Shown here: positions 1 through 53,005 of the stretch, piece by piece
Layout: every line of letters starts with the position of its first letter
Position numbering within the stretch: position 1 is the stretch's first letter
Source of the DNA: Malacoraja senta
Lineage: Eukaryota
Reading direction: 5' to 3'
DNA: 64,000 nucleotides
Assembly (NCBI GenBank): GCA_038087875.1
Contig: CM075988.1
Location: 1,302,001-1,366,000 of the forward strand
The notes under the pieces: generated by a model
Databases searched by the model: none
Told to the model about the DNA's origin: nothing
The model's input: the letters and a program-made list of their open reading frames with translations, nothing else
Position numbers and translations under genes: made by a program

Positions 1-778
1 AGATAAACATAAGAGTGATATTAATACATAGGGATCAGGATTACATTAACAACAAATGTAACCTAAATATAAATCCAGTGTCAAAATACATATTGGGTAC
101 AGACCTCCCAGTCTCTATGTCAATATAGATAAACGGTTAAAAGAGATCTTGTATATATTTAAAAAAAGATAAAAAGACAAAAAAAGAGAAAAACAAAACC
201 CTCTAAACTAAAGTAAGCAAACTAAAACAAAACAGAATCTGAAATCAGTTCCACCGTATAAAGGTACAAAATTATTATAACGGCTGGAGAGGGAACAATT
301 TATATCATGTGAGAATATTGAATAAAGCTTCCCCAAGTCCTATCAAATTTAACCGAGAGTTCCACAATGTCACTCCTAAGTTTTTCTAAATTTAAACATG
401 ATATTGTTTCAGAGTGCCAATGGAGTGTGGTAGGAGGATTAGAGTCTCTCCATTTAAATAAAATAGACCTTCTGGCAATTAATGTAGTAAATGCAATCAA
501 CCGACAGGCTGAACGGGACAGATGAGTAGAATCTAACATTGGTAGCCTAAAAATTGTAGTAATAGGATGAGGTTGTAAATCAATACCTAAAACTACAGAA
601 ATAGTATCAAAAATGTATTTCCAATATTTTTCCAAAAGTGGGCAAGACCAAAACATATGAGTCAGCGAAGCCACTTCAGAATTACATCTGTCACAAGTAG
701 GATTTATATGACCATAAAAACGAGCTAACTTATCTTTTGACATATGTGCTCTGTAAACCACCTTGGTATCTGAGCGTC

Positions 779-1037
779 AGAACGGAGACGAGGACCCACT
801 TTTTCTCACAGAGAGTGGTGAATCTGTGGAGTTCTCTGCCTCAGAGGGTGGTAGAGGCAGGTTTTCTGGATGCTTTCAAGAGAGAGTTAGATAGGGCTCC
901 TAAAAATAGCGGAGTCAGGGGATATGGGGAGAAGGCAGGTACTGATTGGGGATGATCAGCCATGATCACATTGAATGGCGGTGCTAGCTTGAAGGGCCGA
1001 ATGGCCTACTCCTGCACCTATTGTCTATTGTCTATTG
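779..1037 (+). mobile_element. CR1 LINE 3' fragment inserted in L1 ORF2
   Basis: FFSQRVVNLWSSLP motif, CR1 3' UTR and a (CTATTGT)n tail. It interrupts L1 between SSMCA and KVVYRAH. Confidence 0.88.
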
Positions 1038-3540
1038 CACACATTGAAGAGGTATTGACTAATTGAAGAATCCTCTCCCATCTCTCTATAGGTAAAGAAA
1101 TTTGAAGTGCTCTTTCCCAATCATTCTTAATTTTATCAGATGAACCTACTTGTAATTTCATAATCAACTCATAAATAGCCGTCATTAAACCTTTCTGATA
1201 AGGGTTCAAATGTAATTTTTTTTCCGTGATTTCGGTTTGATGTGATAACGGAAAAGAGGGTAGAGTAGCCTTCAAAAAATGTCTAATTTGTAAATATCTA
1301 AAAAAATGTGAATTAGGTAGATTATATTTATTGGATAGTTGTTCAAAGGACATAAAACAACTGTCTAAAAACAAATCACGAAAAAATACTAATCCCTTCC
1401 TCTTCCATTGCAGAAAGGCTTGATCAGTACTAGAGGGTTGAAAGAAAAAATTAGATATGATAGGACTCAATAAGATAAAATCATTCAATCCAAAAAACAT
1501 ACGAAATTGAAACCATATTCGCAATGTGTGTCTTATTATTGGGTTAATCTTATATTTATTCAATCTTGCAATTGTAAATGGTAATGAGTCCCCTAGGATA
1601 GAAGCCAATGATAACCCTTGCATAGAATCACATTCACGATTTATCTATCCTGGACAATGGGTATCTTCTAAATCTTTTGTCCAAAACTATAATAACGAGC
1701 ATTAACTGCCCAATAATATAATCTAAGGTTTGCAATGCCAAACCACCATCTTTTTTAAAATTTCTGTAAGTATTTTTTACTTGGTCTGGGATTTTTATTC
1801 TGCCATATATATGAAGAAATTTTTGAATCCATAATAACAAAAAAAAGATTTAGAAATAAAAATAGGTATAATCTGAAATAAGTATAAAAATGTAGGTAGA
1901 ATAAACATTTTAATTGCACTGATTCGGCCGATTAGGGATAAGGACATTGGTGACCATTTAGTAAACTGTTGTCTGACATGGTCAATTAAGGGCTTAAAAT
2001 TGGCTTTAAATAGGTCCTTGTGTTTCTTGGTAATCTTAATACCTAAATAAGTAAAACAGTCAGTAGTCAATCTAAATGGAAACTGTCCATAATTCGAAAT
2101 GTGATTGTTTAGTGGAAAAAGCTCACTCTTACTACGATTTAATTTATAACCAGAAAAACTACTAAGTTGGTTAAGTAAAGCTATTATTGCAGGAATAGAT
2201 TTCTCTGGATTAGAAATATATAATAACAGATCACCTGCAAAGAGAGATAGCTTATATGTCTTATTCCCACGGACAATACCAAAAATATTGGGGGATTCCC
2301 TAAGAGTAGTGGCCAAAGGTTCCAAAGCAATATCAAACAATAAAGGGCTTAAAGGACAGCCCTGTCTAGTACCTCGAAAGAGCCTAAAGAAAGGGGATCT
2401 CTGATTATTGGTAAGTACAGAAGCGTGAGGTATATGATATATCAGCTTGATCCAAGAGATACATTTTGGGACAATCTTAAATTTTTCAAGTGTATTGATT
2501 AAGCATTCTACTCTGTCAAATGCCTTCTCAGCATCAAGTGAGATGACACATTCTGGAATTTTATTGGAGGCAGTATATACAATATTCATTAATCTCCTAA
2601 CGTTAAAGTATGAATAACGATTTTTAATAAAACCTGTCTGATCTTCAAAAATAATTTGCGGTAAAATGTTTTCCAATCTCATAGCTAATATATTTGAAAG
2701 AATTTTAGAATCTACATTTAACAATGATATAGGTCTATATGATGCCACTTCAGTAGGGTCTTTATATTTTTTAAGAATTAAAGAGATAGATGCTTCATAA
2801 AAGGATTGTGGTAATTTATTCATTAAAAGGACTTCTTTAAAAACTTTGCATAGCCAGGGGGACAGTAAACTTGAAAAATACTTAAAGAATTCCACTGTAT
2901 ACCCATCTAAGCCAGGAGCTTTACCAGAGTTCATCGAAAGGATTGCTTTCTGTATTTCTTCCTCCGTGATGGGTTCAACTAACAACAAAGACTCATTATG
3001 TGATAAATTTGGCTAATTCAATTTCTTTAAAAACTCATGTATTATATTGGAATCAGTAGGAAATTCTGATTGATATAGCAAGGTATAAAATTCTTGAAAG
3101 GATTTATTAATTTCATCATGATCTACTGTCAAAGTACCATCTCGTTTACTAACGTTAATAACCTGACATTTGGCTGAAACAGCTTTCAACTGATTGGCAA
3201 GTAATTTGCCAGATTTATCACCATGTATATAAAATTGACTTTTGGTTTTAAGTAGTTGATTCTCAATCAGTGATACTAATAACAAATCATGTCTCATTTG
3301 AAGTTCAACTCTATTCTTATAAAGCTCTGAACTAGGAGCTTTTGAATATTATTTATCAATTTCTTTAATCTCATCAGCCAATATACGTATTTCATTTTTT
3401 ATTTGTTTTTTTTAATCCCACAGAGTATGAAATAATTTGTCCACGAATATATGCCTTAAAAGCACCCTAGACTACCCCATTGGATATTTCTTCAGTAGAG
3501 TTTGTTGAAAAGAAAAAAGCAATCTGTTCTTTAATAAAAT

Positions 3541-8314: not shown

Positions 8315-9084
8315 TGATTGTTCTGGACTCTTGGTGGGTCCTTGGCAGGTGGAATCCCTCCCGGAGGAGATGAGGCCTTTCACGTGGGGTACCACGTACC
8401 TCCTCTACTTGGGAGTCTACCTGAGTCCAGTTGCGGAGACCTGGCTGGCGAACTGGCAGGAGATGGAGATGAATGTCGTCACCCAGCTGGGGAGCTGGGC
8501 GGGTCTCCTCAGAGTGCTTTCCTACCGGGGCAGGGTGTTGGTCATTAACCAACTTGTGGCCTCCATGCTCTGGTACAGATTAGCCACATTTGTCCCATCA
8601 GCCACCTTTGCTGGGATCATCCAGAAGAAGTTGGTGGACTTCTTCTGGGGCAACGGAAAGCACTGGGTCTCTGCAGCGGTCCTGAGTCTCCCGATTGAGG
8701 AGGGCGGTCAGTCGCTGGTGTGCATTCACACCAAGTTGGCGGCTCTCCGCCTCAGGACCTTGCAGAGATACCTGTACTCATGGCATCCTCCCAGGTGGCA
8801 CGTGCTGGCGACGCACTTTTTCCAACGGGGCCACTGCCTTCAAGGAGGTACGCGGAACCCGATGGTGGGCGTCAGCCGTACGGTCCTGATGGGGATGCCC
8901 GGCTTCTACAGGGACTTGTTGAGAGTCTGGAACCTGGTTGCCGTCGACCGGGCCCCCCCTCCGCCGGCAGAGGGCGACGGCCCGGGCGTGTTTGTATTGT
9001 ATTATGGTGGTGGGTTCTGGTTTGTTTTATTGTATTATAAATATTATTTTTTAATAATTGAATACATTTTTTGATTTAAAAAAA
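8315..9084 (+). mobile_element. Tx1-clade LINE, 5'-truncated and internally deleted (copy 2)
   Basis: YLGVYL...LSYRGRVLVINQLVASMLWY...LPIEEGGQSL. The sequence then jumps to the same 3' UTR and A tail as copy 1. Flanked by aagctggttacg at 8303-8314 and 9085-9096. Confidence 0.85.
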
Positions 9085-9515
9085 AAGCTGGTTACGCGAG
9101 GAGGTGTGGTGATTAGGAGCTCCCATCCAGACACAAGAACTAGTGTGTTTTATCATCTTTATGGAACTCGGAGGAGATACAGCGTTACTTTAAACATCTG
9201 TGTGTATCGCTGCGATGCTGCAGAGACTTGTTTTAAAGTTTTCTGCTTGTTTTGGGACTGCGAGCAGTCTTATCAATTGAGGTCTAATGTGGCCATACAC
9301 ACAGGGAGCGCTGTTCACCCTCGGTGGTTTCAACAGTTTTTACTTGCACAACCTGACGCACAGTGTTATTGTGCAGTCATGTCACAGCCATTCTTCATGG
9401 GTGTGTCTGTAGGATAAACAGCAATGGTGACGCATTGGGGTTTCTCCCAAATGTCTTGCCAGGTGGTCTTGCCCCATAGAGGCTTCCCTGCAATGTTCCA
9501 GTCATTCTCCTTCCA

Positions 9516-10290
9516 TAGAGTCATAGAGTGATAGTGTGGAAACAGGCCCTTCGGGCCAACTTGCCCACACCGGCCAACAATGTCCCAGCTACATTGGTCC
9601 CACCTGCCCACATTTGGTCCATATCCCTCCAAACCTATCCTATCCATGTACCTGTCTGACTGTTTCTTAAATGTTGGGATAGTCCCTGCCCCAACTACTT
9701 CCTCTGGTAGCTTGTTCCACACATCCACCAACCTTTGTGCGAAAAACCTACCCCTCAGATTCCTATTAAATCTGCTCCCCTTCATTTTAAACCTATGTCC
9801 TCTGGTTCCTAATTCACCTACTCTGGGCAAGAGACTCTGTGCATCTACCCGATCTATTCCTCTCATGATCTTATACATCTCTATAAGATCACCCCTCATC
9901 CTCCTGCACCCCAAGGAATAGAGTCCCAGCCTACTCAACGTCTGTCTACAGCTTAGACCCTTTAGTCCTGGCAACATCTTCGTGAATCTTCTCTGTACAA
10001 TTTCCCGCTTGACAATATCTTTCCTCTAACATGGTGCCCAGAACTGAACACAATATTTTAAATATGGTCTCACCAACGTCTTATACAACTGCAACATGAC
10101 CTCCCAACTTCTATACAATATTCTGATGAAGACCAAAGTGCCAAAAGCCTTTTTGACCACCTGATCTACCTGCGACTCAACCTTCAAGGAACCATGCACC
10201 TGTACTCCTAGATCCCTCTGCTCTACAACACTACCCAGACTCCTACCATTCACTGTGTAGGTCCTGCCCATGATAAGACTTCCATTTCTG
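9516..10290 (-). mobile_element. CR1 LINE 3' fragment inserted in the ERV RNase H
   Basis: LYKTLVRPYLKYCVQFW, RRMRGDLIEMYKI and FFAQRLVDVWNKLP motifs, with a (ctatgact)-type tail. Confidence 0.9.
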
Positions 10291-10649
10291 ACCACAAATT
10301 TCCACTTCAGTAACCAAACAGCCATGTCATTGGCGACAGCCCATGAGTCAGTGTAGATGTGAGCTTCAAAGCCAGACACAAAATGCTGGAGTAACTCAGC
10401 TGGTCAGACAGCATCTCTGGAGATAAAAGGATGGGTGATGTTTTGGGTCGGAACCCTTCTTCAGATTGAAAGTAGTGAAGGGGGGAGGGAACTCAAGGTA
10501 GGAAATGCCAGAACAAATCCCGTGAGCTTCCTTGTCTTTGAAAGAATCTATGTGATGATAGCAAGGTCCAGTCACAGTGGGACCTCATCCCCTGCCAGTC
10601 CCTGTCTCCACCAGCGCCCAGTAGCAGCACCACAGCTGTTGGTCAGCAG

Positions 10650-11575
10650 CAATAGACAATAGACATTCGGCCCCTCAAGCCAGCACCGCCATTTAATGTG
10701 ATCATGGCTGATCATCCACAATCAGTACCCCATTCCTGCCTTCCAACCACATCCCCTAACTTCGCTATCTTTAAGAGCTCTATCTAACTCTCTCTTGAAA
10801 GCATCCAGAGAATTGGCCTCCACTGCCTTCTGAGGAAGAGAATTCCACAAATTCACAACTCTCTGGGTGAAAAAGTTTCCCCTCATCTAGGTTCTAAATG
10901 GCCTACCGCTTATTCTTAAACTGGGCCCTGGTTCTGGACTCCCCCAACATCGGGAACATGTTCCTGCCTCTAGGGTGTCCAAACCTTTAATAATTTTATA
11001 TGTTTCAATAAGATACCCTCTCATCCTTCTAAATTCCAGCATATACAAGCCCAGCCGCTCCATTCTACCAACATATGACAGTCCCGCCATCCCGGGAATT
11101 AACCTCGTGAACTTATGCTGCACTCCCTCAATAGCAAGAATGTCCTTTCTCAAATTTGGAGACCAAAACTGCACACAATACTCCAGGTGTGGTCTCACTA
11201 GGGCCCTGTACAACTGCAGAAGGACCTCTTTGCTCCCATACTCAAGGCCAACATGCCATTAGCTTTCTTCACTGCCTGCAGTAGTTGAATGCTTACTTTC
11301 AGTAACTGATGAACAAGGACCCCCCAGATCCCGCTGTACATCCCCTTTTCCCAACTTGATACCATTCACATAATAATTTGCCTTCTTGTTTTTGCCACCG
11401 AAGTGGATAACCTCACATTCATCCACATTAAACTGCATCTGCCACGCATCTGCCCACTCACCCAACCTGTCCAAGTCACCCTGCATCCTCCTCACAGTTC
11501 ACACTGCCACCCAGCTTTGTGTAATCTGTAAATTTGTGAATGTTACTTTTAATCCCTTCATCTAAATCATGAATG
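10650..11575 (-). mobile_element. CR1 LINE 3' fragment
   Basis: QGDLDRLGEWADAWQMQFN and [18 protein letters not shown] motifs, with a (ctattgt)n tail. Confidence 0.9.
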
Positions 11576-12947
11576 TAGTGCAGTGCAAGGAGTGGGTGCG
11601 CCAGGCACCTGGTGACCAGACGCCCAGGGCACTGTCCGCCAGTTTGTCACTGCCATGATGTCCATACAGCAGCGTTTAAGTTTACTGAGGCTTGTAATTC
11701 AGCAAGGAGCCTGGCACACATAGACAGAGTGGCTGGGCCTGCGACAGGCCTCCTCTGGCAGCATCCTGCTGTTTCTAGCCACACTCAAGTAACGGCATAC
11801 AGGGGTTGTAACAGGCTTGTTAAATGTTGTATGTGATGGATGCGGAACAGTAGCGGAACAGCCCAAGTAGTGGGAGTCTCCTGCTGACTCGTGGGTGTTG
11901 GCAATATCAAGGATGCTAACCTTGACCTGGCCTGATATTACGCAGGTACAAATAAATGCTGGAGAAACTCAGCGGGTGCAGCAGCATCTATGGAGCGAAG
12001 GAAATAGGGAACGTTTCGGGCTGAAACCCTTCTTCAGTCTTTTTTTTTTTTTAAAGACCCAAAGTGCTGGAGTAACTCAGTGGGCCGGGCGGCGTTTTGG
12101 GCTGGGACCCTTATCCAGTGTCACCCTTCCCAAGTAAAGGCAAACTGATCTTGAGATTGTTCAGCAATTGGAATAAGGAGAATGACATTGGATGGGGAAT
12201 CACAACATACCCTGAGTCAGGGCCAGATTAAAGGTACTCGAGTAAAGTAACACCACCAGGCACTGCAGCTGCTGAATGGGTGCGTGTGTATTTACCTGCC
12301 GATGGTCCCCAGTTCATCACCAGCTGTAACGGTCTCCTTGGCCAACCAGCCTGGGCTAGAAACAGCAGACTGATGACCTCTGCCTGTGGCAACCCATCCA
12401 TGGTTGCTCCATGCTCTCTGTCTCCAAGTCTAGTTCGTCCAGCTGTTTGTGTCTGCATGCATCTGAAGCCGGTATGTATGCATGGGGATCAGGACTTTAC
12501 CCACCGCCACGTCACTCTCCTATCACAAAATTAAATGATTCAATGACACTTCTTTGTCACATGTAGCTAGGTACAGTGAAATTCTATTTGATTTTATTTC
12601 AATCGGGTAGTCATACATCAAATCTCACCCAGTCAGCACACGAAGTGTCGCCACATTTCTGGCACCGACAAAGTTTGAACAGTCTTATCTTGACAGCGGC
12701 AAACCAAGCCTGTACTGCTCGCGGCCGGTGGTGGCTGCCCACTGGGTCCCTCTTAGTTCTTGGCGGCCTGTCCACCAAGTTGCTCTCTGCAACACCCACT
12801 GCTCATTCGGCTCCATGGCGTATCCCAGGAGTCTTCTGCCGCCGCTAATTTTCCTTTCTTTTCTTTTGGGAAATTAATTTTCTCAACGGTTTCTGCAGTT
12901 TATCCTCTTCTACATCTATACTCAGTGGGTTTTCATTTGCCTGTTAA

Positions 12948-13185
12948 AGTGGCGGCACAGCATTGGAGTTGCTGCGTTACAGCGCCGGAGACCTGGGTTT
13001 GATCCCGACTGCGAGTGCTGTCTGTTCGGAGTTTGCATGTTCTCCCTGTGACCTGCATGGGTTTTCTCCGGGTGCTCCGGCTTCCTCCCACATTCCAAAG
13101 ATGTACAGGTTTGTAGGTTAATTGGCTTGGTCCCTAGTGTGTATAGGTGATTGTTAGTGTGCGGGTATTGCTGGTCAGCATGGAT
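12948..13185 (+). mobile_element. tRNA-derived V-SINE (HE1-like)
   Basis: tRNA-like head (ggcggcacag...cctgggtttgatccc) followed by the V core ggagtttgcatgttctccctgtgacctgcatgggttttctccgggtgctccggcttcctcccaca. Related copies at ~15040-15250, 30325-30600, 44960-45290, 52250-52445, 52570-52865, 53890-54085 and 56830-57020. Confidence 0.85.
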
Positions 13186-14565
13186 TACATAGATACATAG
13201 ATACATAGAAAATAGGTGCAGGAGTAGGCCATTCGGCCCTTCGAGCCTGCACCGCCATTCAATATGATCATGGCTGATCATCCAACTCAGTATCCCGTAC
13301 CTGCCTTCTCTCCATACCCCCTGATCCCTTTAGCGACAAGGGCCACATCTAACTCCCTCTTAAATATAGCCAATGAACTGGCGTCAACTACCCTCTGTGG
13401 CAGAGAGTTCCAGAGATTCACCACTCTCTGTGTGAAAAAGTTTTTCCTCATCTCGGTCTTAAAGGATTTCCCCCTTATCCTTAAGCTGTGACCCCTTGTC
13501 CTGGACTTCCCCAACATAGAACCTCCCTGCTCTTATACTCAAATCGTTTTGCTATGAATGCTAACATACCATTCGCTTTCTTCACTGCCTGCTGCACCTG
13601 CATTCCTACTTTCAATGACTGGTGTACCATGACACCCAGGTCTCGCTGCACCTCCCCATTTCCTAATCGGCCACCATTTAGATAATAGTCTGCCTTCCCG
13701 TTTTTGCCACCAAAGTGGATAACCTCACATTTATCCACATTATACTGCATCTGCCAAACATTTGCCCACTCCCCCAGCCTATCCAAGTCACCTTGCAGTC
13801 TCCTAGCATCCTCCTCACAGCTAACACTGCCCCCCAGCTTAGTGTCATCCGCAAACTTGGAGATGTTGCTTTCAATTCCCTCGTCCAGATCATTAATATA
13901 AATTGTAAATAGCTGGGGTCCCAGCACTGAGCCTTGCGGTGCCCCACTAGTCACTGCCTGCCATTGTGAAAAGGACCCTTTTACCCCTACTCTTTGCTTC
14001 CTGTTTGCCAGCCAGTTCTCTATCCACATCAATACTGAACCCCCAATACCATGTGATTTAAGCTTGTATCCTAATCTCTTATGTGGTACCTTGTCGAAAG
14101 CCTTCTGAAAGTCCAGATACAACACATCCACTGGTTCTCCCCTATCCACTCTACTAGTTACATCCTCGAAAAATTCTATAAGATTCGTCAGACACGATTT
14201 ACCTTTCGTAAATCCATGCTGACTTTGTCCAATGATTTCACCACTTTCCAAATGTGCTGCTATCCCATCTTTCTCTCCATACTAACTGACTCTAGCAGTT
14301 TCCCCACTACCGATGTTAGACTAACTGGTCTGTAATTCCCCGTTTTCTCTCTCCCTCCCTTCTTAAAAAGTGGGGTTACGTTTGCTACCCTCCAATCCTC
14401 AGGAACTACTCCAGAATCTAAAGAATTTTGAAAAATTATCACTAATGCATCCACTATTTCTGGAGCTACTTCCTTAAGTACTCTGGGATGCAGCCTATCT
14501 GGCCCTGGTGATTTATCGGCCTTTAATCCATTCAATTTAGCCAACACCACTTCCCGACTAACCCG
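13186..14565 (-). mobile_element. CR1 LINE RT fragment with internal deletion
   Basis: ORFs 13481-14251 and 14260-14550 carry CR1 RT motifs including KFADD. There is a (ctatgtat)n tail and a deletion junction at ~13518. Confidence 0.93.
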
Positions 14566-15524
14566 ATTCAGTGGGCCGAAAGGCCTGCTTCTGCGCTGTA
14601 TCTCAAAACTAAACTAATTTCAGATTAAAACGGGGAGAGTCTGTGGTTCACCGCTTCCGATGATGGTCAATGGAACAACGGTCTGCGCACCTGTCTGCGC
14701 CTCCCTATCCATGTACCCACACTCACGTGCACCTATATCAGAGAAGCCTATCTGTCCATATCTACCAACAATATTTCCCTCGCTACTTTTCCGCCTCTCA
14801 GGTCTCCAGGTGATATTCCAAGGATGGGGAGACACAAGGAACAGTGGATGCTGGTTAGAAAAATAAGATACAAAGTGCTGGAATAACTCTAAGGATCAGG
14901 CAGTATCCCTGGAGAATGTGGATAGTTGACATTTTTGGTCGGGACCTTTCTTCCTCCTGAGATGCCGGACCCGCTGAGTCTCCAGACACGAGGGCTGCTG
15001 GCACTTGAGCTCTGGAACCCTTGCCCCTCCCCCAGTCAAAGGTTGCTGCCTCACAACTCCAGAGACACGGGTTCGATCCTGACTTCGGGCACTGTCTGTG
15101 CAGTCTTTGTACATTCTCCCCGTGACCTGCATGGGTTTTCTCCGGGTAGTTCCCGTTTCCTCCCACACTGTAGGACAGCACTGGTGTATGGGGATTAATG
15201 GTTGGCATTAACACGATGGGCCGAAGGGCCTGTTTCCCTGCTCTTTCTCTAAAGTCTTGTAACTCTGTGGCACTGTAACCCCTGACAGTAGTTAATGTGG
15301 TTTCAGTCTCTGGATCCCGCTGAGACAACTGATTATTATCTCTGTCTAACTCATCCGATTACCAAATATCCCAACCAGTGCTGTGGGTCCCAGTCACCTT
15401 GTGATAACATACTGCCTGCTTTTGTTCGATACATTGTCACTCCTCATTTAATTTCTCTCGCTGTTGAATGGTAGATAACGTACAGGCGGTATCGACTTGT
15501 TTCCACACCACCTTTCCTGCCCAT

Positions 15525-15900
15525 TGGAGACTGAAGGGAGACCTGATAGAAATATGGGTGGCATAGATAGGGTAGATAGAATCTTTTTCGCCAAGTGGGA
15601 ATGTCAAATATTAGAGGGTATACCTTTAACGTGAGGGGGGCACAATTTAAAGAAGATGTGCAAGGCAAGTTCTTTTACACAGAGGGTGGTGGGGGCCAGG
15701 CACGCACTGCCAGGGGTGGTGGTGGAGGCAGATACAATAGTGGTGTTTAAGAGACTTTTAGATAAGCACATAGAAATGCAGGGAATTGAGGAATATGGGT
15801 CATATGCTGATATATGAGATTAGTTGAACTTGGCATCATGTTCGGCAAGGACATTGTGGGCTGAAGGGCCTGTTCCTGTACTCTACTGCTCTGTTCTAAC
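15525..15900 (+). mobile_element. CR1 3' fragment, degraded
   Basis: Degenerate RLKGDLIE...FYTEGGG and a CR1-type 3' UTR. Confidence 0.75.
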
Positions 15901-16037
15901 ACTTCCTATTCTACCTATGTAGTCTACAACCTGATGGTATGAAAAATGAATTCCCAAATTACAAGATATCTGAAATTATGCCATCTGTTATCCTAGCAAT
16001 ATTTACAGCTATTTCTCGGTTATTAATTCTCCAGAGA

Positions 16038-17004
16038 GAGTTAGCTATTAAAATTTCAAAGGAAAGTTGGAATGAATACTTATTAAACGTGCATAAATGC
16101 TCGATTAATGTAAGACGCACTTTAATACAATTTAAAATTTTACATAGATTATATTATTCGAAAACTAAAATTCATAAAATTTTCCCAAACGTATCATCTA
16201 TTTGTGATAAATGTCAATCCCAAGAAGCTACTATAGCGCACTCATTCGTCTTCTGTACAAAAATTCAAAAATTTTGGAATGAAATTTTTGAAATCTTTAC
16301 AAAGTTATTTAAAACAAGACTGATACCCAAAGCAGAATGGATTATCTTCGGAATAACGGAAGATGATCCAGAACTAAATGTGTTTCAAAAGAAATTAATG
16401 GACTATGGGTTAATAACTGGGAAAAAAAGCTAATTCTAAAATTTTGGAAGAAGGCTCCAATACCAACTATAAATATGTGGATTTCAAATATGTTTGAAAC
16501 ATTACACCTAGAAGAGATAAGACTCCTCCTAGCAGGTAAACCAGATCACTTCCACCTGACGTGGTCTGCATTTATAGAATTATTACAAACATAGGGTGCA
16601 AAAGTACTTTAAAAAAAATAAAAAATTGAGGTCAGGTAAGGGGGGATGATAGTTGAAGAGTTGGTATGTCCTATTTACGTAATACTCAAAAAATATATAT
16701 ATATTTTTTTCTTTTTCCTCTCTTTCTCTTTTTTTTCCTAGGGCCTATCTCTTAACTCTTTTTTTTTTTAGTTTTTAATTTTGCTCTTATAGGGTCTTCG
16801 TCCTTTTTTGTTGTTACATTTTCTACACTTTTCTACACTTTCACTTTTTCCTTCACTTTCTTCTTTCTTTCAATCTTTTCCTTTTCTAGTGTAAAAAAAA
16901 ATAAAGGGAGTACATTAATTGTAAGAAGATACAAATGACGAGTATTAATGTATGTGGTTGTAATGTAATGTACTTCTAATAAATAAAAATTAAAAAAAAA
17001 AAAA
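16038..17004 (+). mobile_element. L1-clade LINE, 5'-truncated 3' end
   Basis: LIQFKILHRLYY...CDKC...HSFVFC zinc-binding motif, T-rich 3' UTR, AATAAA and poly(A). Imperfect TSD tattaattctccagaga (16021-16037) / taataatctccagaga (17005-17020). Confidence 0.88.
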
Positions 17005-17542
17005 TAATAATCTCCAGAGATCCCACACAAATCTTGGCTGTGTTCTTCCTGCTTTTATCTCCATAGAAACTCTTATTGGTTGAATTGATATTAACATGTT
17101 TTCTCTCAAATTCAATTTTTTTCCTCATATGCTTTTGTCTTTCTCTGCTGAACCCTAAAACATCCAGGTGTTGCAGTTGGGAAGAGAAGCTATTAGTCGA
17201 CATGCAAGTCATTGTGGAGGCACAGGGACTGGAGTTGGAAACCTCACGTCAAGAACAGATGCGGTGGAAAGGGAGAAATAGAGAAAGCGATGCAGAGACA
17301 CAGTGGGCTGAGGTGTAGTCTAGGTAGATGTGGGAGTCACTGGGTTTGGAGGAGATATCAGTGGAGAGGGTCTGGACCCAAAATATAAATTGTCCACTTC
17401 TCTCCACAGAAGCTGCCTGGCCAGCTGACTCCCTCCAACTGCTGCCCTTTCTTTGATATCAGTTTCTCCTCCATAATTGCTGCAGCAGAACAAGTCTTCA
17501 ATGAACAGTCAACAAAAAGAGTAGCTGTTTGTGGAAGTAGTG

Positions 17543-18169: not shown

Positions 18170-18271
18170 TCAGATCTGCATCTGCTCCAGGTACTTGTAG
18201 GTGGGGTTTTCATACCCATGGTTTTGCATCTTGTTCAGGTGGCGTTCCTCTGGGGTCAACATGGGGTCAAC
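18170..18271 (-). CDS. APLP2: APLP2 last coding exon (cytoplasmic tail with YENPTY)
   Basis: ttttacag acceptor. Encodes [37 protein letters not shown], the APLP2 C-terminus. Confidence 0.98.
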
Positions 18272-20655: not shown

Positions 20656-21314
20656 CATGGCAGTTGTCAGTACTCGAATGAGGGAACACATCTTAAGGTG
20701 ATACACTATTACTGCTACATCTTCATTTTGCAATGACATGTTGAGAAGTGGTATGTGCCAGTGTGGAAGTTGATTTGAGAACATTGCCACGAATTTGATA
20801 ATATTTACACCTGGCTGTGCAGAGTTCAGTGAGTTCACTGACTATCTTCAGTGAGTGGACATCGGTTTGCAGGAACTGCTCCAGTACAGAGCGAGGGGGC
20901 CGACTGGACTTTGGAAATGGCACCAAAACATGGCAGCACCTGCACGTATAATATATGCAAAAATACTTTCACTGTGTATATGTGACAAAAAAGCACATTT
21001 GATTGAGCACTGCAGGGTAAAAGCCCTGCATTGGCTCATTCTGCTGGAAAGGAGCAATACATCTCTCCTTGGATAAAGTTGTAATATGAGCCGTAACTAA
21101 AACTGACATGTGCACACCATGCAAAATGAAACGCCTGTTACTGTATAGCTGCTCCGAAGCTTGTGTGGTGTCTGTGAAGAACAATATGAACTGTGTACAT
21201 GTTACACATCCCCACATTGGTGGTGGTAGAGCAACAAACTCAGAGTGGCAAAATAAATCCACTGCATTGTACCACCTGCAGTAAACACATTAAAGGCTCA
21301 TTTAATGCACTCAC

Positions 21315-23859: not shown

Positions 23860-25380
23860 GTTTCACACTCAAAAATAGGGGGAAGGTTACGATTCTTCCT
23901 AAAAGAATGGCAATCAATAACAAATGATTCATTCATTCTACGTAGCATTGTAGGATTCAAAATTGAGTTCTCTCCACGTTTGGATCCTCCAATTCAGCAT
24001 AATTCAAACTGGTCACGGATTTTCTCAAAGGAAGAGAATGTTGATCAAGGGAGAATTGAACATTTTATGCGGAAAAGGGGTAATAGAAAAGTCAGTAGAA
24101 CAACACCATCAGTTTGTGTCAAATATTTTTCCTAGAACAAAAAAGGATGGTGGATGTAGAATCATTTCGGATCTGACAAATCTTAACCTTTATGTACAAT
24201 ATAAACATTTCAAAATGGGAACATTTACTAATGCCATTCAGCTGGTCACAAAGAATTGCTACATGGCAAGCATAGATCTGCAAAATGCATATTATTCTGT
24301 GGAAATGCATGGTAATGATCAAAGATATTTGAAATTTAGATGGATGAGTCAGTTATGGCAATTCAAAGCATTGCCCAATGGCCTGACTTCAGCACCAAGA
24401 TTATTCACTAAATTACTCAAACCAATTTTAGCTCTGCTAAGAGCCGAGGGCCATGTATTAATGGCTTATTTAGATGATATTCTGATTGTGGGGGACACTT
24501 TGGCTACTGCAAAATTGTCAGTATCTAGAGTCAAATACAATTTGAAAAAATGGGTTTCATTATTCACCTACAAAAATCAAAATTGTTACCAAGCAAGAAG
24601 ATTGATTACCTAGGGTTCACAATTAACTCTGAACACATGGTAATCACCTTGCCAAAAGAGAAAAGGCTGCAGGTAATTGAAGGTTGCACTAAACTCATAA
24701 ACGAGGACAAGCCTTCAATTAGAGAAGTGGCAAGCTTGCTGGGCAAATTAATTGCTGGGTTTCCAGCTGCCAGGTTTGGACCATTGCATTATCAATGTTT
24801 GCAGAGGGCTAAGGTACAAGCATTAAAAATGAATACAGGGCATTTTGACAGGCCCATGAAATTGACAATTGGATCCATTACAGAAATAGAATGGTGGATT
24901 AACAATGTCTCTAATGCTTCCAGAAAAGTTCTGGTAGAAACACCTTCCGTCATTCTACAGACTGATGTAAGTGGTCTTGGATGGGCGCAACAAACATGAT
25001 TTCCAGCTGTGGAGGTAGGTGGAATGTGGATGAAGTACCTTTGCTTGAAAATTAAGGAATACATTTCCTAGAGCTGTTAGGAGCATTTTATGGCCTTAAA
25101 GCGTATTGCACTAATATGGGAAATGTGCATGTTCAGGTACAGGTTGACAATACTACAGCTGTAGCATACATAAATCACATGGGTGGTATCAAATCAGAAT
25201 CATGTGATAGATTGGCAAATGAAATTTGGACCTGGTGTATTGTCAGGAAAATCTGGCTGTCAGCAATATATTTACCAGGAAAATTTAACACAATTGCAGA
25301 CAAAAGATCATGTAAATTTAATGATAATACAGAATGGATGTTACATCAGGAAATATTTAAGTAAATTGTAACACGATTTG
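23860..25380 (+). pseudogene. DIRS RT / RNase H, frameshifted
   Basis: ORF pieces 23833-24135, 23963-24613, 24550-24999 and 25116-25364 join across frameshifts and stops. Confidence 0.9.
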
Positions 25381-29455: not shown

Positions 29456-31985
29456 ATCATTTGGATTATGAAAGGATTTGAAAGTATACATTTTACAGTG
29501 ATGTGCGTGGTCTTTCAATGTGCTTTATCTTTGCTGATTACATTGCGAGAGGCATAACGGAAGTCGGGTCGGGTTTGCTAAAATGGCGGACGTCCCGCCC
29601 CGTTCCGTACTACACGTCAGTCCATTGGATTTTGCAGGAGTGGACCATCTTGCTCCGCTCTATGGTCTTTGATCATCACTGTCTCGCAGAATACAGCAAT
29701 GGAAATTACTTGGGTCAGAATTAGGCCAGCTGACCCCTCAAACCAGCTCAGCAAAGCATCTAGATGGTGGCTAATCTTTTATCCCAGCACCATTCCTATG
29801 CCCCTTAATGTCCAGAAATCAACTTAATTACTGAGCTTCCACAATCCTTCAAAGTTAGAAAATTCCAAACATTCACCACTCTCTGCATGAAGAAATGTCT
29901 TCTTATCTGCGTATAAATGGCCTACTCCTTAATTGTGATTCTGTGACCGCTGGCTCTGGACTCTTGTTTTGGGGAAAATTCTGCCTTGCATCCATTGTGT
30001 GAAAGATGGAAGTTTCAATGAGATTACCCCTCATGTTTCTAAACTCTAGAGACTACAGGCCCAACCTACTCAATCTCTCCTCAGCCCGTAAACTTGCCAT
30101 TCCTGTAAGCAGTCGGGAGAATCAACAGCACTTTCTCAGTGGCAAGTGGAAGATCACCAAAACTAAAACTATACTCCTCGTGTGACTTCAGCAAGGCCTT
30201 AAATAACTGAGGTCGGACTTCTTCATGGAAGCATCAAATCCTCTTGGAATAAAGGTTTACATAATTCATGATTACTTGCTGCAGCAACATATCCACTTTC
30301 TGTGGCCTTAATACAAGGAGCACAAAGGCACAGTTAGTAAAGTCATTGCCTCAGAGTGCCAGACATCCTGGTTCATCACAACCTTGGATTCTGCCTGTGT
30401 GGAGTAAGCATGTTCTCTCTGTTACTGGGTGGGTTTCCTCTGGGTTCACCATTTCACCAACGGCCCAAAGACGTGTATTGGTAGTTAAACTGGGCGGAAT
30501 CAATTGCTCCCTACATATATGAGTGGTGGAATCTGGTGAGAGTTGATGAGAAAGTGGGATGAATAAAATGGATTAATGTATAATGACTCAGTGGGCCGAA
30601 AGGATGGCTACCCTGCCAGCTACCTCCCTGACAACGAGGTCCCTTTGAACATCAACATACTCTTTTATGAAATATTAAACATTAATGTGCATCAAAGTGA
30701 ATAACCTCACATTGTATTCCAGTTTCCATATTCTCACCCACTCACTTGGCTGTCTCTGTCACTTTGAAGCTTCTTTACATCCTTATCTCTACTCATAATT
30801 CCACTTAGTTTTGCATCATCAGCAAACATCAATAAAGAACATTTGCTTCCCTCAGCCACCATCAATATAGATTGTGCCTAGTTAACGTTGGTTCTCTGAA
30901 AGAGCTTTCACACTGAATCGCACAGCCCTGCCTTTTTACCAAAGTGGCAAATTATCCAATTTTCAATTAATTATCCAATTTCATTTTGAAAGTTATTATT
31001 GAATCTGCTTCAAACCCACTTTCAGTCAGTGAATTTTAGATCTTATCACAATACATTAAACATTTTTGTGGCAGATTCAAGCATTCCAAAGGGTTTTTAA
31101 AAGCATCAGCACAACTCATCTTGCTACTCCGCAATTTGTTTAAATACACACACAGATTTATTCCTGCGCACCCTTTCAGATAGTGTCATATAGTTTATTT
31201 GCCTGCTGAATTGTGTCGTTCACACTTCACATTGTTGAACTTCACCTGCCAAGTGTCTAGTTATTTCAGCAGTCCAGCCATATTAGCATTTGTCCTAAAC
31301 CATAAAGTGCTGCAGTAACTCAGCGGGTCAGGCAATATTTCTGGAGGACATGGATAGGTGACGATTCGGGTTGGAACGTTTCTTCCAACTGATTGTAGTT
31401 GAGGGGAGGATGCTGGAAGAGAGGTGGAGCAGGCAAGGCCTGGCAAGTGATAGGACTCAGGTGGGAGAGGTTGTTGGCAGGTCTCACAGACTTTTATTTC
31501 CTTCTCATCCCTGGCCTTTGTCTAGAGATGAAAAGGAACAAAAAGGCTGTGAGATAAGGTGATCTGTGAAGTGAGGCCAGGGGAAGGGATATAGGTGGAA
31601 GGAGATGGGGTCAGTGGGGAAGGAGAAAGATGGCTACGCTAATGGGAGAAATGAGTGCATATCCAGGAACGGCACGGGGAAGAAAGGGTGGAAAAGGGGG
31701 AAGGGGAGATTGAAATTATGCTTTGCAAAATCTAGGTTGTTAATACATAACAAATTGTTGTTCTAAAATGAGCAGAACAGTGATTTCTCTGCAGTCTGCA
31801 AAATAAATATGTACTCCTGCTCACTGCCTTATGTCATACTGTTTTACAGGACAGTTCTTTAGCTGAACTCATCCATGCTGACCAAGTTGCCTAACCAATG
31901 TAGTCCTAATTTGCCTGCGTGTGACCCATATCTCTCCAAACCTTTCCTATCCATGCAACTATCCAAGTGTTATTTAAAAGTAATA

Positions 31986-33402
31986 CAGTGCTCTCCATAA
32001 TCTTTGGGGCAAAGACCCATCATTTATTTATTTGCCTCTGTACTCCACAATTTGGGATTTGTAATAGAAAAAAATCACATGTGGTTAAAGTGCACATTGT
32101 CAGATTTTAATAAAGGCCATTTTTATACATTTTGGTTTCACCATGTAGAAATTACAGCAGTGTTTATCCGAAGTCCCCCCCCATTTCAGGGCACCATAAT
32201 GTTTGGGACACAGCAATCTCATGGAAATGAAAGTAGTCATGTATAGTGTTTTGTTGCATATCCTTTGCATGCAATGACTGCTTGAAGTCTGCAATTCATG
32301 GACATCACCAGTTGCTAGGTGTCTTCTCTGGTGATGCTCTGCCAGGCCTGTATTGCAGCCATCTTTCACTTATTCTTGTTTTGGGGGCTAGTCCCCTTCG
32401 GTTTTCTCTTCAGCATATAAAAGGCATGCTCAATTGGGTGATTGACTTGGCCACTCAAGAATTGACCATTTTTTAGCTTTGAAAATCTCCTTTGTTGCTT
32501 TAGCAGTATGTTTGGGATCATTGGGCAGTTCCTTCTCTCCTCCATACTTTGCTCTTGCCATCACTCTGATATAAGTTAATCTTTGTCTCATCTGTCCACA
32601 AGACCTTTTTGCAGAACTGTGATTGCTCTTTTAAGTACTTCATGGCAAACTGAAACCGGGCCATCCTATTTTTGCGGCTAACCAGTCGTTTACATCTTGC
32701 AGTGTAGCCTCTGTATTTCTGTTCATGAAGTCTTCTGCGGACAGTGGTCATTGATAAATCCACACATGACTCCTGAAGAGTGTTTCTGATCCGTCGGACA
32801 GGTGTTTGGGATTTTTTCATTATTATAAAGAGAATTATTCTGTCATCAGCTGTGGAGGTCTTCCTTGGCCTGCTAGTCCCTTTACGATTAGTAAGCTCAC
32901 CAGTGCTCTCTTTCTTCTTAATGATGTTGCAAACAGTTCATTTTGGTAAGCCAAAGGTTTGGTTGATGTCTCTAACAGTTTTATTCTTGTTTCTCAGTCT
33001 CATAATGGCTTCTTTGACTTTCATTGGCACAACTTTGGTCCTCATGTTGATAAACAGCAATAAAAGTTTCCAAAGGTGATGGAAAGACTGGAGGAAAGAC
33101 TGGGTGCTGAGAGCTCTCTTATACCTGCATGAAGGAGGCAATTAAACACACCTGAGCAATTACAAACGCCTGTGAAGCCATGTGTCCCAAACATTATGGT
33201 GCCCTGAAATAGGGGGACTTTGTATAAACACAGCTGTAATTTCTACATGGTGAAACCAAAATGTATAAAAATGGCCTTTATAAAAATCTGACAATGTGCA
33301 CTTTAACATGTGATTTTTTCTTATTACTAATCTCAAATTGTGGAGTACAGAGGCAAATAATTAATTGACGGGTCTTTGTCCCAAACATTATGGAGGGCAC
33401 TG
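31986..33402 (-). mobile_element. Tc1/mariner transposon with ~220-bp TIRs, internally deleted transposase
   Basis: TA|CAGTG start and CACTG|TG end. TIRs at 31986-32212 and 33181-33402 with internal direct repeats. Transposase motifs [37 protein letters not shown] and WPSQSP. Confidence 0.93.
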
Positions 33403-33409
33403 TGACTAA

Positions 33410-50820: not shown

Positions 50821-53005
50821 CTCGGAAGATACAAGGAACTACAGATGTTGGAATCTTGAGCAAAACTCAAACTACTGGAGTAAATCAATGGGTCAGGTGG
50901 CACCTGGGGAAGTAATGGATTGATTACATTTTGAGTCGGGATCCATATTCGGACTGATAGTAGTGGGGTGAGGGGAGAAAGCTGGAAAGAGGTGGGGGCG
51001 GGGCAAAGCCTGGTAATTGAAAGGTGGATACAGCTGAAGGGGGTTTTGATTGGAAGATGGGAGGACAAAGGCTGGAAATTAAATGATACAAAAAGGTATG
51101 GGTTAAGAGATGAGTAAAGTGTACAGCCGGGAGAGATATAGATGGAGGACAGGATGATGGGGGGGGGGGCGGGGGGGGAAAGAGGGGCAGGATAGCGGGA
51201 GAAATAGGTGCACACCTCCTCCATTGTCATTGAGACCACACGCAAACTGGAGGAACAGCACCTTATATTCTGCTTGGGTAGCTTACAACACAACGGCATG
51301 GACACGGAATTCTCCAATTTTAAGTAAGCCTTTCTTCACCCTTCCACCCCTTCTCTCTGCTCACTGCCACCCCCCCTCCCAACCCTGGTGCGCACCCATT
51401 ACTCCCGCTATCCCAACCCCTCCATCTATATCTCTCCCTTTGGCTTTATATTTCACTCCTCTCCTTACCCAACACACTTTTGTCTCTTTTTTCATTTCTA
51501 GCCTTTGTCCACTCATCTCCCAATCGAAACCCCCCATCACCTGAGTTACAAGGAGACTGGAAGGGCAGGGACTGTTTTGAACAGGTACATGGATGGGAAA
51601 GGTTTAGAGGAATGTTCTGATAAAGCTTCAGATCTTGCACTGATATATGCAATTACTAGCATTGCTACATACTGAAGCTTGACTGCAAATTATGCAGTGT
51701 AGTTACAATGAGAAAGATTGGGAAAGGTGTTGGGGCCGCCCTATTTGATAATTAATATATTGTAGATCTATTAGCAGATTTCAAAAGTACATACTTGCAT
51801 GCCACAACAAAGTAAGCATAAGGTGGAGATTAATTTTGTCAGGCAGCAAATAGAGAGTTGTTGCACAGTTCCTCCCACCTGCCGCAGTCTGAGGCTTTAC
51901 TCACGTCAAAGCCAGCCTGTACCTGTTCTCTTGGGAAGATCAGGAACGTTTCCGTGGAAGAGTTCCTGGTGACTATGTCTAATCATGTTCAGCTGTAACT
52001 TCTGACTGACAGTAGAGAGCAGCAGGAGCAGTAGTTGGACTTGCCAAGGAATGTCCTCAATATCACTTGGTGACCAGTGCACAGATGTAGGCAATGGGTA
52101 ACTGGGATACCACTAGGAACAGCAGAAGGGATAGACATGGGGTGTGCAATTCCTCTGTGGCCATTCCCTTGGTAACAAGTAAAACCTTTTGGATACTGTT
52201 AAAGGGATGGCCTTACAGAGGAGAGCAGCAGCAGCAGCAGCATACAAACTCAAACCAACTAACCTACAAACCTCTACATCTTTGGAGTATGGGAGGAAAC
52301 CGATGATCTCTGAGAAAACCCACGCAGTCACAGGGAGAACGTACAAACTACGTACAGACAGCACCCATTGTCGGGAACCAACCTGGGTCTCTGGCGCTGC
52401 AAGCACTGTAAGGCAACAACTCTACCGCTGCGCCACCATGCCGCCCATTTGGTAAGACAAACCAGGGCAGAGTTTCACAGTATATGGTAGTGCTCTGGGG
52501 AGCATTGGAGAGCAGAGACACTTTGGGATGCAAGTACATAGCTCCATGAAAGTGGTGACACAAGTCTTTACTTTAGACTGAAACTGAAACTTTACAGGTG
52601 CAGCGCAGAAACTTGCCCTTCAGCCCACCGAGTCCACACCAACCAACGATCACCCCATACACTACCACTATAGGCACACTAGGTACTATTTATTTTTTTA
52701 ACCAAAGCCAATTAACCTACAAACCTGTATGTCTTTGGAGTGCAGGACGGAACCGGAAAAACCCCACGCTGTCATGAGGAGTACGTCCATACAGCCAGCA
52801 CCCGTAGTCAGGATCAAACCCGGGTCTCTGGCGCTGTATGCCAGCAAGTCCACCGCTGCACCATGAACCGTCAGGGTAGTGAAGAAGCCATTTGGCATGC
52901 TTGCCATCATTAGGCAGAGTACAAGAGTTGGAATGTCATGTTACGGCCACAGTTGGTATACTGTGTGCAGTTCTGGTCACCCTGCCATCCCCATTTTGTT
53001 CTTAC

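Follow-up and report, generated by a model that had tools for sequence, protein, structure and literature searches.

Positions 1,302,001 to 1,366,000 of contig CM075988.1 of the cartilaginous fish Malacoraja senta (assembly GCA_038087875.1; G000:C12:1302001-1366000 in our coding), a stretch of 64,000 nucleotides that we call the window, contain a series of short minus-strand remnants with retroviral motifs. This raises the questions of whether the remnants derive from a single endogenous retrovirus (ERV), to which lineage it belonged and how its family multiplied. Our analysis, which included searches over the 1.94-Gb assembly, indicates that the window copy is very probably a dead, internally deleted class III ERV of the ERV-L/ERV-S lineage, from a family that likely spread by intracellular copying after the loss of env.

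Nine remnants were delimited, from 15525 down to 9278, and each of them matches sister copies elsewhere in the same genome (Table 1). A sequence-only reading of the window had proposed one collinear ERV-L/ERV-S-type provirus split by younger insertions, and the family tree, the profile scores, the sister copies and the long terminal repeat (LTR), primer-binding site (PBS) and target-site features of the family all back it. The 13 motifs searched lie on the minus strand, from 15283 down to 9447, in the gag-pro-pol order that it gave; two short ones have further occurrences in the window (ASLI at 11916; LLVD at 17190, plus strand). The integrase start shows its W-x-H, with a stop after it. The extent then proposed, 9285..15330, is slightly exceeded: gag reaches 15525 and the element ends at 9278. 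A pre-protease piece at 14968-15048 had been missed. Single sister copies carry counterparts of the pieces in the same order, which speaks against fragments of unrelated families. A translated search with an independent retroviral Pol (P0001) gave seven minus-strand tblastn matches across the fossil, in query order from residue 153 to residue 662; individually these are weak (E from 2e-5 to 3.1), and the sole other match in the window is a different reverse transcriptase (RT) at 24113.

We scored the five post-protease pieces, each singly and in three frames, against an ERV-L-like profile and obtained 22.9, 14.6, 5.0, 28.0 and 32.9 bits, while the best of 20 shuffles per piece reached at most 0.1 bits. 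The ERV-L-type profile was top for all five, with the foamy, gamma, delta, Gypsy and loki-labelled profiles at 2.5 bits or less and epsilon at 9.2 bits or less. The labels of the 'loki' (P0241, P0245, P0246, L058), 'epsilon' and 'delta' viral loci were inferred from motifs and Pfam and are not database names. As protein, the gag and protease pieces are weak (shuffles scoring as high numbered 0/200 for gag A, 4/200 for gag B and 20/200 for protease); as DNA they match sister copies at E 2e-19 to 2e-7. Pfam gave no relevant match on 10 window pieces, which are too short. Since the window pieces match sister gag as DNA and also match a profile of the Gags of the clade, the Gag is of ERV-L type; an Atlas match at 0.90 for Gag is a lead only.

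A DNA search with the RT piece of the window found five other places in the genome, and a protein search with the RT of the best sister found eight other places at 47-63%; nearly all the rest stood at 31-40% and belong to other families (150 of 1529 candidates were scored). The least broken sister, C2:134.77M (the C2 copy), retains protease, RT with YVDD, tether, RNase H, integrase, purine tract and 3' LTR, and is likewise broken by stops and frameshifts, with most of gag lost. The pol order is protease-RT-tether-RNase H-integrase. In another copy, C5:50.45M, the family LTR is followed by the PBS and gag, and this gag matches the gag pieces of the window, which ties the window copy to that LTR family. 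Kimura two-parameter (K2P) distances between window pieces and copies were 0.26-0.39 (10 of 11 copies aligned), and a DNA tree of nine copies gave branching without resolution.

LTR ends, target sites and the PBS were measured on other copies of the family. Just as the sequence-only reading had reported no LTRs, the family LTR was not found in the window or the adjacent 10 kb, where one 50-nt match falls in an unplaced repeat (12539-12583). Genome-wide, the LTR search returned 351 candidates, and the 40 that were scored are 78-87% alike apart from the query itself. Both ends were found in 16 of the 24 LTRs fetched, which measure 422-725 bp, mostly near 600, and have TGT…ACA ends. A 5-bp target-site duplication with at most one mismatch flanks 11 of these 16 (six exactly), or nine of 14 when two near-duplicate LTR pairs are counted once, and none of the 16 has one of 4, 6 or 7 bp. 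The family is low-copy and has many solo LTRs. Its PBS matches the 3' end of a host tRNA-Ser(AGA) gene, and the PBS pattern occurs 74 times in the genome versus 0 for a control pattern; among 30 fetched matches one is a tRNA-Ser(AGA) gene and most others follow other LTR types. Several other LTR families of the same genome (L142-L170) use the same tRNA-Ser primer site.

With MuERV-L and HERV-L, the window family shares the RT clade, the env-less layout, the 5-bp duplication and the Gag type. ERV-L elements are primed by tRNA-Leu. They thus differ from the window family, with its Ser site, in the PBS, and also in carrying a dUTPase after the integrase. Three dUTPase queries gave no match in 143 own-genome loci and the window (the protein control matched 3/11), and only ~100 nt stand at the dUTPase position, after the integrase, in the C2 copy; in C1:81.78M there are ~320 nt between the integrase end and the LTR. 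With a Ser instead of a Leu primer site, and with no dUTPase detected, the family works like ERV-L but is ERV-L/ERV-S-like and not ERV-L proper. As for ERV-S-type characters, the tRNA-Ser primer is present in the window family, and a class I-type transmembrane (TM) env was seen as a remnant only in a related family.

The careful RT tree comprised 43 rows hand-chosen from 92 and was built under a mixture model; a first RT tree had dropped 2 of 94 rows with short RT. In the careful tree, the C2 copy lies with mouse P0012 in a starred clade of 19 rows (98/94), which is nested, together with the ENS-3 group and a group without a name, in a class III clade (100/98), with foamy, class I and Gypsy sequences outside. 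P0012 stands in a cluster with Mus members and has DYRKLN, YIDD and a post-integrase dUTPase, features of ERV-L in the table available from PMC8278194; from the cluster members and these features, we take it to be MuERV-L. In a set of 1.84 billion representatives, the top three matches come from a caecilian, a stingray and a bichir and belong to the same clade. The named homologs of P0001 are all from vertebrates: amphibians, lungfish, bichir, teleosts, turtles, birds, a mole, Hemitrygon, Narcine and Carcharodon. A single clade for the three chondrichthyan rows was rejected (approximately unbiased test, p = 0.0004). In the connection-RNase H tree, Carcharodon P0075 grouped with P0008 of the killifish Nothobranchius (100/99), a possible case of cross-class transfer. 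The group without a name (P0003, P0217-P0222) is class III-like, stands apart from ERV-L and ENS-3 and includes an intact-looking Pol in Peromyscus.

Other retroviral identities were tried and rejected. A foamy virus (spumavirus) is contradicted by the RT, which lies outside the foamy clade, by a low foamy profile score and by the sister protease, which weakly matches RVP and not Spuma_A9PTase. In a search of the Protein Data Bank (PDB), foamy RTs came on top only because no ERV-L structure appeared; an own-genome search for the foamy protease family gave 0 matches, as did its control, and therefore carries no information. Class I ERVs make 4-bp target duplications. A gamma- or epsilon-type class I element is contradicted by that length, found at 0/16 LTRs, by the RT position outside class I and by low profile scores. 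For Ty3/Gypsy, the RT again lies outside the clade and the profile scores are low, and a tether is present, unlike the single RNase H without tether of Gypsy. Given how short each piece is by itself, and that the protease remnant lacks significance at the protein level, one could still imagine a Gypsy or class I element, or a chance line-up of unrelated fragments. With the ordered mapping on single sister copies, and with profiles and tree positions far from both Gypsy and class I, we regard this as scarcely credible.

Several points weigh against the ERV-L/ERV-S placement itself. The tree uses a sister copy because the RT palm of the window copy is gone; this C2 copy ends a long branch (0.85) and belongs to none of the starred subsets of the connection-RNase H tree (29/30 rows), and the rows lack named SnRV, HERV-S and XtERV-S sequences. 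The ERV-L-like profile was built on 20 sequences, recruited via similarity to the sister copy, versus 3-8 in the other multi-sequence profiles, and the class III group without a name scores close to it on RNase H (25.8 vs 28.0 and 29.0 vs 32.9 bits). The family might then be a separate, deeper class III lineage, SnRV-like or of the group without a name, pulled towards ERV-L by the long end branches that occur in both trees. No SnRV reference was recovered in scans of viral contigs: those with P0012 and alignment A2 found nothing, and the one with alignment A1 retrieved 40 retrovirus loci with no recognisable SnRV among them. Nevertheless, the starred 98/94 grouping was obtained under the mixture model, the family RT is 51-57% identical to the caecilian, stingray and bichir members versus 37% to the group without a name, and several cluster members of the stingray relatives are annotated as having Fv1-like Gag. 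A deeper lineage therefore seems improbable to us.

As to the mode of spread, a class I env probe from this genome matched 4 of 15 stretches, none of them in the family of the window. C2:134.77M, C1:81.78M and C1:136.46M have the short stretch between the integrase end and the 3' LTR in common, in collinear form; this favours one loss of env before amplification over separate losses copy by copy. However, the window copy has neither LTR, PBS nor 3' region, so that the env loss of the family is read from only two to three sister copies. Class I-type TM env remnants occur in four copies of a related ERV-L-type family, L045 (C1:321.52M), L055-L056 (C8:9.19M), L177 (C1:348.40M) and L182 (C1:359.43M). 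The window and env-bearing families were joined at 81 in a quick tree, a join that the careful tree does not resolve; the env-bearing family is thus a candidate ancestor. The LTRs of the two families are only partly alike (70-80% over short parts), and the related copies C8:9.19M and C1:348.40M have the same Ser PBS. Such relatives could have supplied an envelope with which the env-less family was packaged and reinfected germ cells, and a single loss would itself be compatible with helper-driven reinfection. We consider reinfection of this kind, or env loss copy by copy, unlikely but well worth keeping in mind beside intracellular copying.

If intracellular copying was the route, the history may be pictured as follows. 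An env-bearing class III ancestor like XtERV-S would have infected the germ line, and one env loss would have produced an env-less offshoot, which amplified in cells by retrotransposition primed by tRNA-Ser. LTR-LTR recombination would then have collapsed most copies to solo LTRs. The window copy presumably lost both ends and three internal blocks, was interrupted by short interspersed element (SINE) and CR1 insertions, became fixed before its carrier organisms split and now would make no protein.

How old is this insertion? The RT piece or part of it was found in at least 22 sequencing runs (one in full, 21 at 7-15% of words) under five organism labels; none of the runs listed is of RNA, which has no bearing on expression. 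Four runs, one each from labels B, C, E and G, were aligned to 11450-12960; the coded labels may not all be separate species. All four gave flat low-depth contigs over the viral pieces with ~3-7% other letters, and contigs spanned the SINE/RT junction in 4/4 runs, the protease/repeat junction in 4/4 and the CR1/thumb junction in 3/4. In two runs (X4 and X5), the site of the RT deletion was bridged by a 102-letter variant of the SINE stretch. Because sister copies are far more distant than 3-7%, these contigs are orthologs and represent the same broken locus; the insertion is old and fixed, and it and the RT loss predate the split of those organisms. Its LTRs gave no date for the C2 copy, which offers a 108-nt stub (K2P 0.088) and an LTR ~18 kb upstream (0.128), neither of which shares a clean target site with the 3' LTR. 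Divergence is 0.04-0.12 between the LTR pieces of C1:81.78M and has a median of 0.216 among 14 LTRs. As a rough figure, a divergence of 0.09 would correspond to ~90 or 200 million years under the rates assumed in the accessible parts of PMC10699275 (0.5e-9) and PMC4422223 (2.2e-10), respectively.

The presence of the remnant under five organism labels, together with its location on the same strand as an APP-family gene and ~2.7 kb downstream of it, might also suggest that it was kept through co-option, for example as a 3' regulatory element of that gene. Yet the LTRs, where regulatory signals usually reside, have been lost, stops interrupt all three frames of each remnant examined, and the viral parts and an adjacent unplaced repeat differ at similar levels across organisms, as judged by eye. 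Co-option is therefore very improbable in our estimation, and a decayed, inert copy is the better description.

How much of this is new? The sequence-only reading had called the lineage sparsely described in cartilaginous fish. A literature search without subscription journals, Repbase and Dfam, which may hold one, found no study centred on shark or ray families of ERV-L type; the lineage is, however, not undescribed, since a whale-shark consensus stands beside HERV-L and MuERV-L in a 2018 supplement. This element, Rh_ty_ERV3 (Xu et al. 2018, PMC6001957, S2 Fig and supplementary file 7), is likewise a cartilaginous-fish ERV, and its label heads the clade Huo beside No_fu_ERV1, HERVL, Murine_ERVL and HERVS, in label order only, as the figure in its accessible form does not display the topology. 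Its Gag has, by eye, 8 of 11 residues as in the RGYSATELQD region of the window; the comparison was made by Gag motif and label position alone, not by alignment. No PBS, LTR, target-site or env description of it was found in the accessible parts of PMC6001957. Clade Huo occurs in all major vertebrate lineages according to the same parts of that paper, and includes ERV-L according to those of PMC8922424. As far as their accessible texts go, a 2016 review assigned HERV-S/L-like elements to tetrapods, whereas its list for cartilaginous fish, represented by the elephant shark, comprised SnRV-like and epsilon-like ERVs only (PMC4977317); the same three lineages appear in PMC4422223, which required a downstream env and so left out env-less elements; and clade III is the commonest ERV RT class in cartilaginous fish in PMC11089739, with 2843 clade III RT loci in six chondrichthyan genomes.

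XtERV-S of Xenopus (Yedavalli et al. 2021, PMC8278194, in its accessible parts) resembles the window family in its ERV-L-type gag-pol, TGT…ACA ends, 5-bp duplication, tRNA-Ser(AGA/TGA) PBS, deleted copies and many solo LTRs. It differs in having a dUTPase after the integrase and an intact class I-type env and in being recent, whereas the window family is decayed and neither gene was found in it. GenBank also holds proteins without a name from the same clade, in Hemitrygon akajei (P0015, P0178, P0084), Narcine bancroftii (P0033, P0198) and Carcharodon carcharias (P0075); they are much better preserved than the window copy and form clusters of 13-14 members at ≥90%. No dUTPase was found in the stingray and Narcine proteins tested, and a PDB search with a stingray Gag gave no significant match. 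The Hemitrygon akajei family (P0015, P0178-P0189; 13 members at ≥90%) has full-length Gag-Pol models, several of its members being named Fv1-like, which suggests that the family was recently active in that ray. Given that Rh_ty_ERV3 is listed beside HERV-L and MuERV-L and that ray and shark proteins of the lineage exist, novelty is limited, and the window family adds a member to a known lineage. We did not find its anatomy described for such hosts, namely a Ser primer, target sites of 5 bp, the lack of a dUTPase and the co-occurrence of relatives with and without env.

More tentatively, and with some doubt, we propose that more than one ERV-L-type lineage exists independently in sharks and rays, several in all, among them a sister to a killifish element, and that this genome keeps an env-bearing form together with an env-less, dUTPase-less offshoot. 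If this is true, the fixed copy beside the APP-family gene would date the ERV-L clade in marine hosts to a minimum age, and would leave a natural record of how an infectious virus turned into a retrotransposon outside tetrapods. Because the locus is orthologous and anchored by a host gene, a minimum age can be obtained from it, which would likely help to date the group. The locus itself is inert, and no general view is changed.

We also examined how the copy was broken. In comparison with sister copies it lacks both LTRs, the PBS, ~770 nt of gag with the capsid middle, ~280 nt of RT palm, ~360 nt where the connection ends and RNase H begins, and all sequence past the first integrase His; no integrase core was found in the window or the adjacent 10 kb. 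The absence of the RT catalytic region, suspected earlier, is borne out by the C2 copy, whose palm, including the YxDD region, has no counterpart in the window. The three large internal losses all fall at SINE sites (15046-15250, 11944-12118 and 10368-10533), which are three of the four lone SINE sites, and at the three blocks containing CR1 the viral losses are 0, ~12 and 57 nt. SINE-SINE recombination is our guess as to the cause of the internal losses. Seven of the eight inserted repeats tested within the element have a closer relative among the loci compared (77-99%) than the viral pieces have overall (70-78%), which fits a later arrival than the virus; the eighth has no full-length match. 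The CR1 and SINE labels rest on reading frames, copy number and recall, and CR1 is presumably the right family name for the inserts, which are long interspersed elements (LINEs).

Table 1. Remnants of the fossil, the repeats that interrupt it and the nearest host exon (window coordinates)
Feature	Position	Strand	Remarks
Gag remnant A (region of the W-D-P...W-D-I-W motif of ERV-L-type Gag)	15345..15525	-	DNA 67% to C5:50.45M gag, 66% to C1:22.69M; gag profile 6.2 bits
Gag remnant B (RGYSATELQD)	15252..15343	-	DNA 70-76% to three sister copies
SINE-like repeat at site of ~770 nt gag loss	15046..15250	.	39 matches among loci compared; gap vs C1:22.69M 8409 to 9183
Gag end / pre-protease remnant	14968..15048	-	79% over 71 nt to C2 copy, E 3e-11
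SINE-like repeat, no viral loss	14826..14967	.	Both flanks at overlapping positions of C2 copy
Protease remnant with stop	14617..14823	-	64% over 129 nt to C1:22.69M, E 2e-7; short matches to C2
Nested insertions	12531..14616	-	Short SINE piece; CR1-type LINE 13186-14562 (young), with CR1-type RT reading frame in block; SINE 12950-13185; unplaced repeat end 12531-12950; 99% copy among loci compared; 57 nt viral loss vs C1:22.69M
Protease end and RT fingers to QDQFAFTWEG	12119..12529	-	Frameshifts, stops; 22.9 bits ERV-L-like, next best 11.7
Two SINE pieces at site of ~280 nt RT palm loss	11944..12118	.	C2 copy 10537 to 10257 without counterpart
RT thumb and start of connection (tether) domain	11583..11943	-	P0001 matches, sister copies, profile
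CR1-type LINE 3' fragment, near-clean insertion	10646..11582	-	Flanks ~12 nt apart in C2 copy
Connection remnant (CYWALVET)	10534..10645	-	78% over 112 nt to C1:273.28M; profile
SINE-like repeat at site of ~360 nt loss (connection end, RNase H start)	10368..10533	.	C1:136.46M 7813 to 7455 without counterpart
RNase H remnant (IYTDSWAVAN)	10300..10367	-	DNA 84-96% to four copies; 28 bits
CR1-type LINE 3' fragment, clean insertion	9516..10299	-	Flanks overlap 5 nt in C2 copy
RNase H end and integrase start (first His, then stop); element end	9278..9515	-	79% over 240 nt to C2 copy, E 2e-52
Last coding exon (YENPTY) of APP-family gene	18170..18271	-	Pfam APP_amyloid and APP_Cu_bd matches below cut-off

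The APP-family host gene, which we take to be APLP2, spans 18170-53146 on the minus strand, with a copper-binding exon near 53000 and a transmembrane exon near 21300, and serves as a synteny anchor for the fossil. The window also contains an RT remnant of another type with YLDD (24044-24550, plus strand), presumably DIRS-like from its motifs, a Tc1/mariner element (31985-33403) that has long inverted repeats and retains part of a transposase, and L1-like LINE fragments at 15900-17000 (96% copy in L059) and 303-3348. Elsewhere in the genome, L058 (C8:7.00M) and L057 belong to an abundant family in which gag, pol and an env-like gene, the last without a Pfam match, have long frames; its RT lies outside class I and the ERV-L group, and the family may be SnRV-like or lokiretrovirus-like. 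A further family, L060 (C1:135.72M) and L059, is an epsilon-like class I family, with long gag, pol and env frames in L060.

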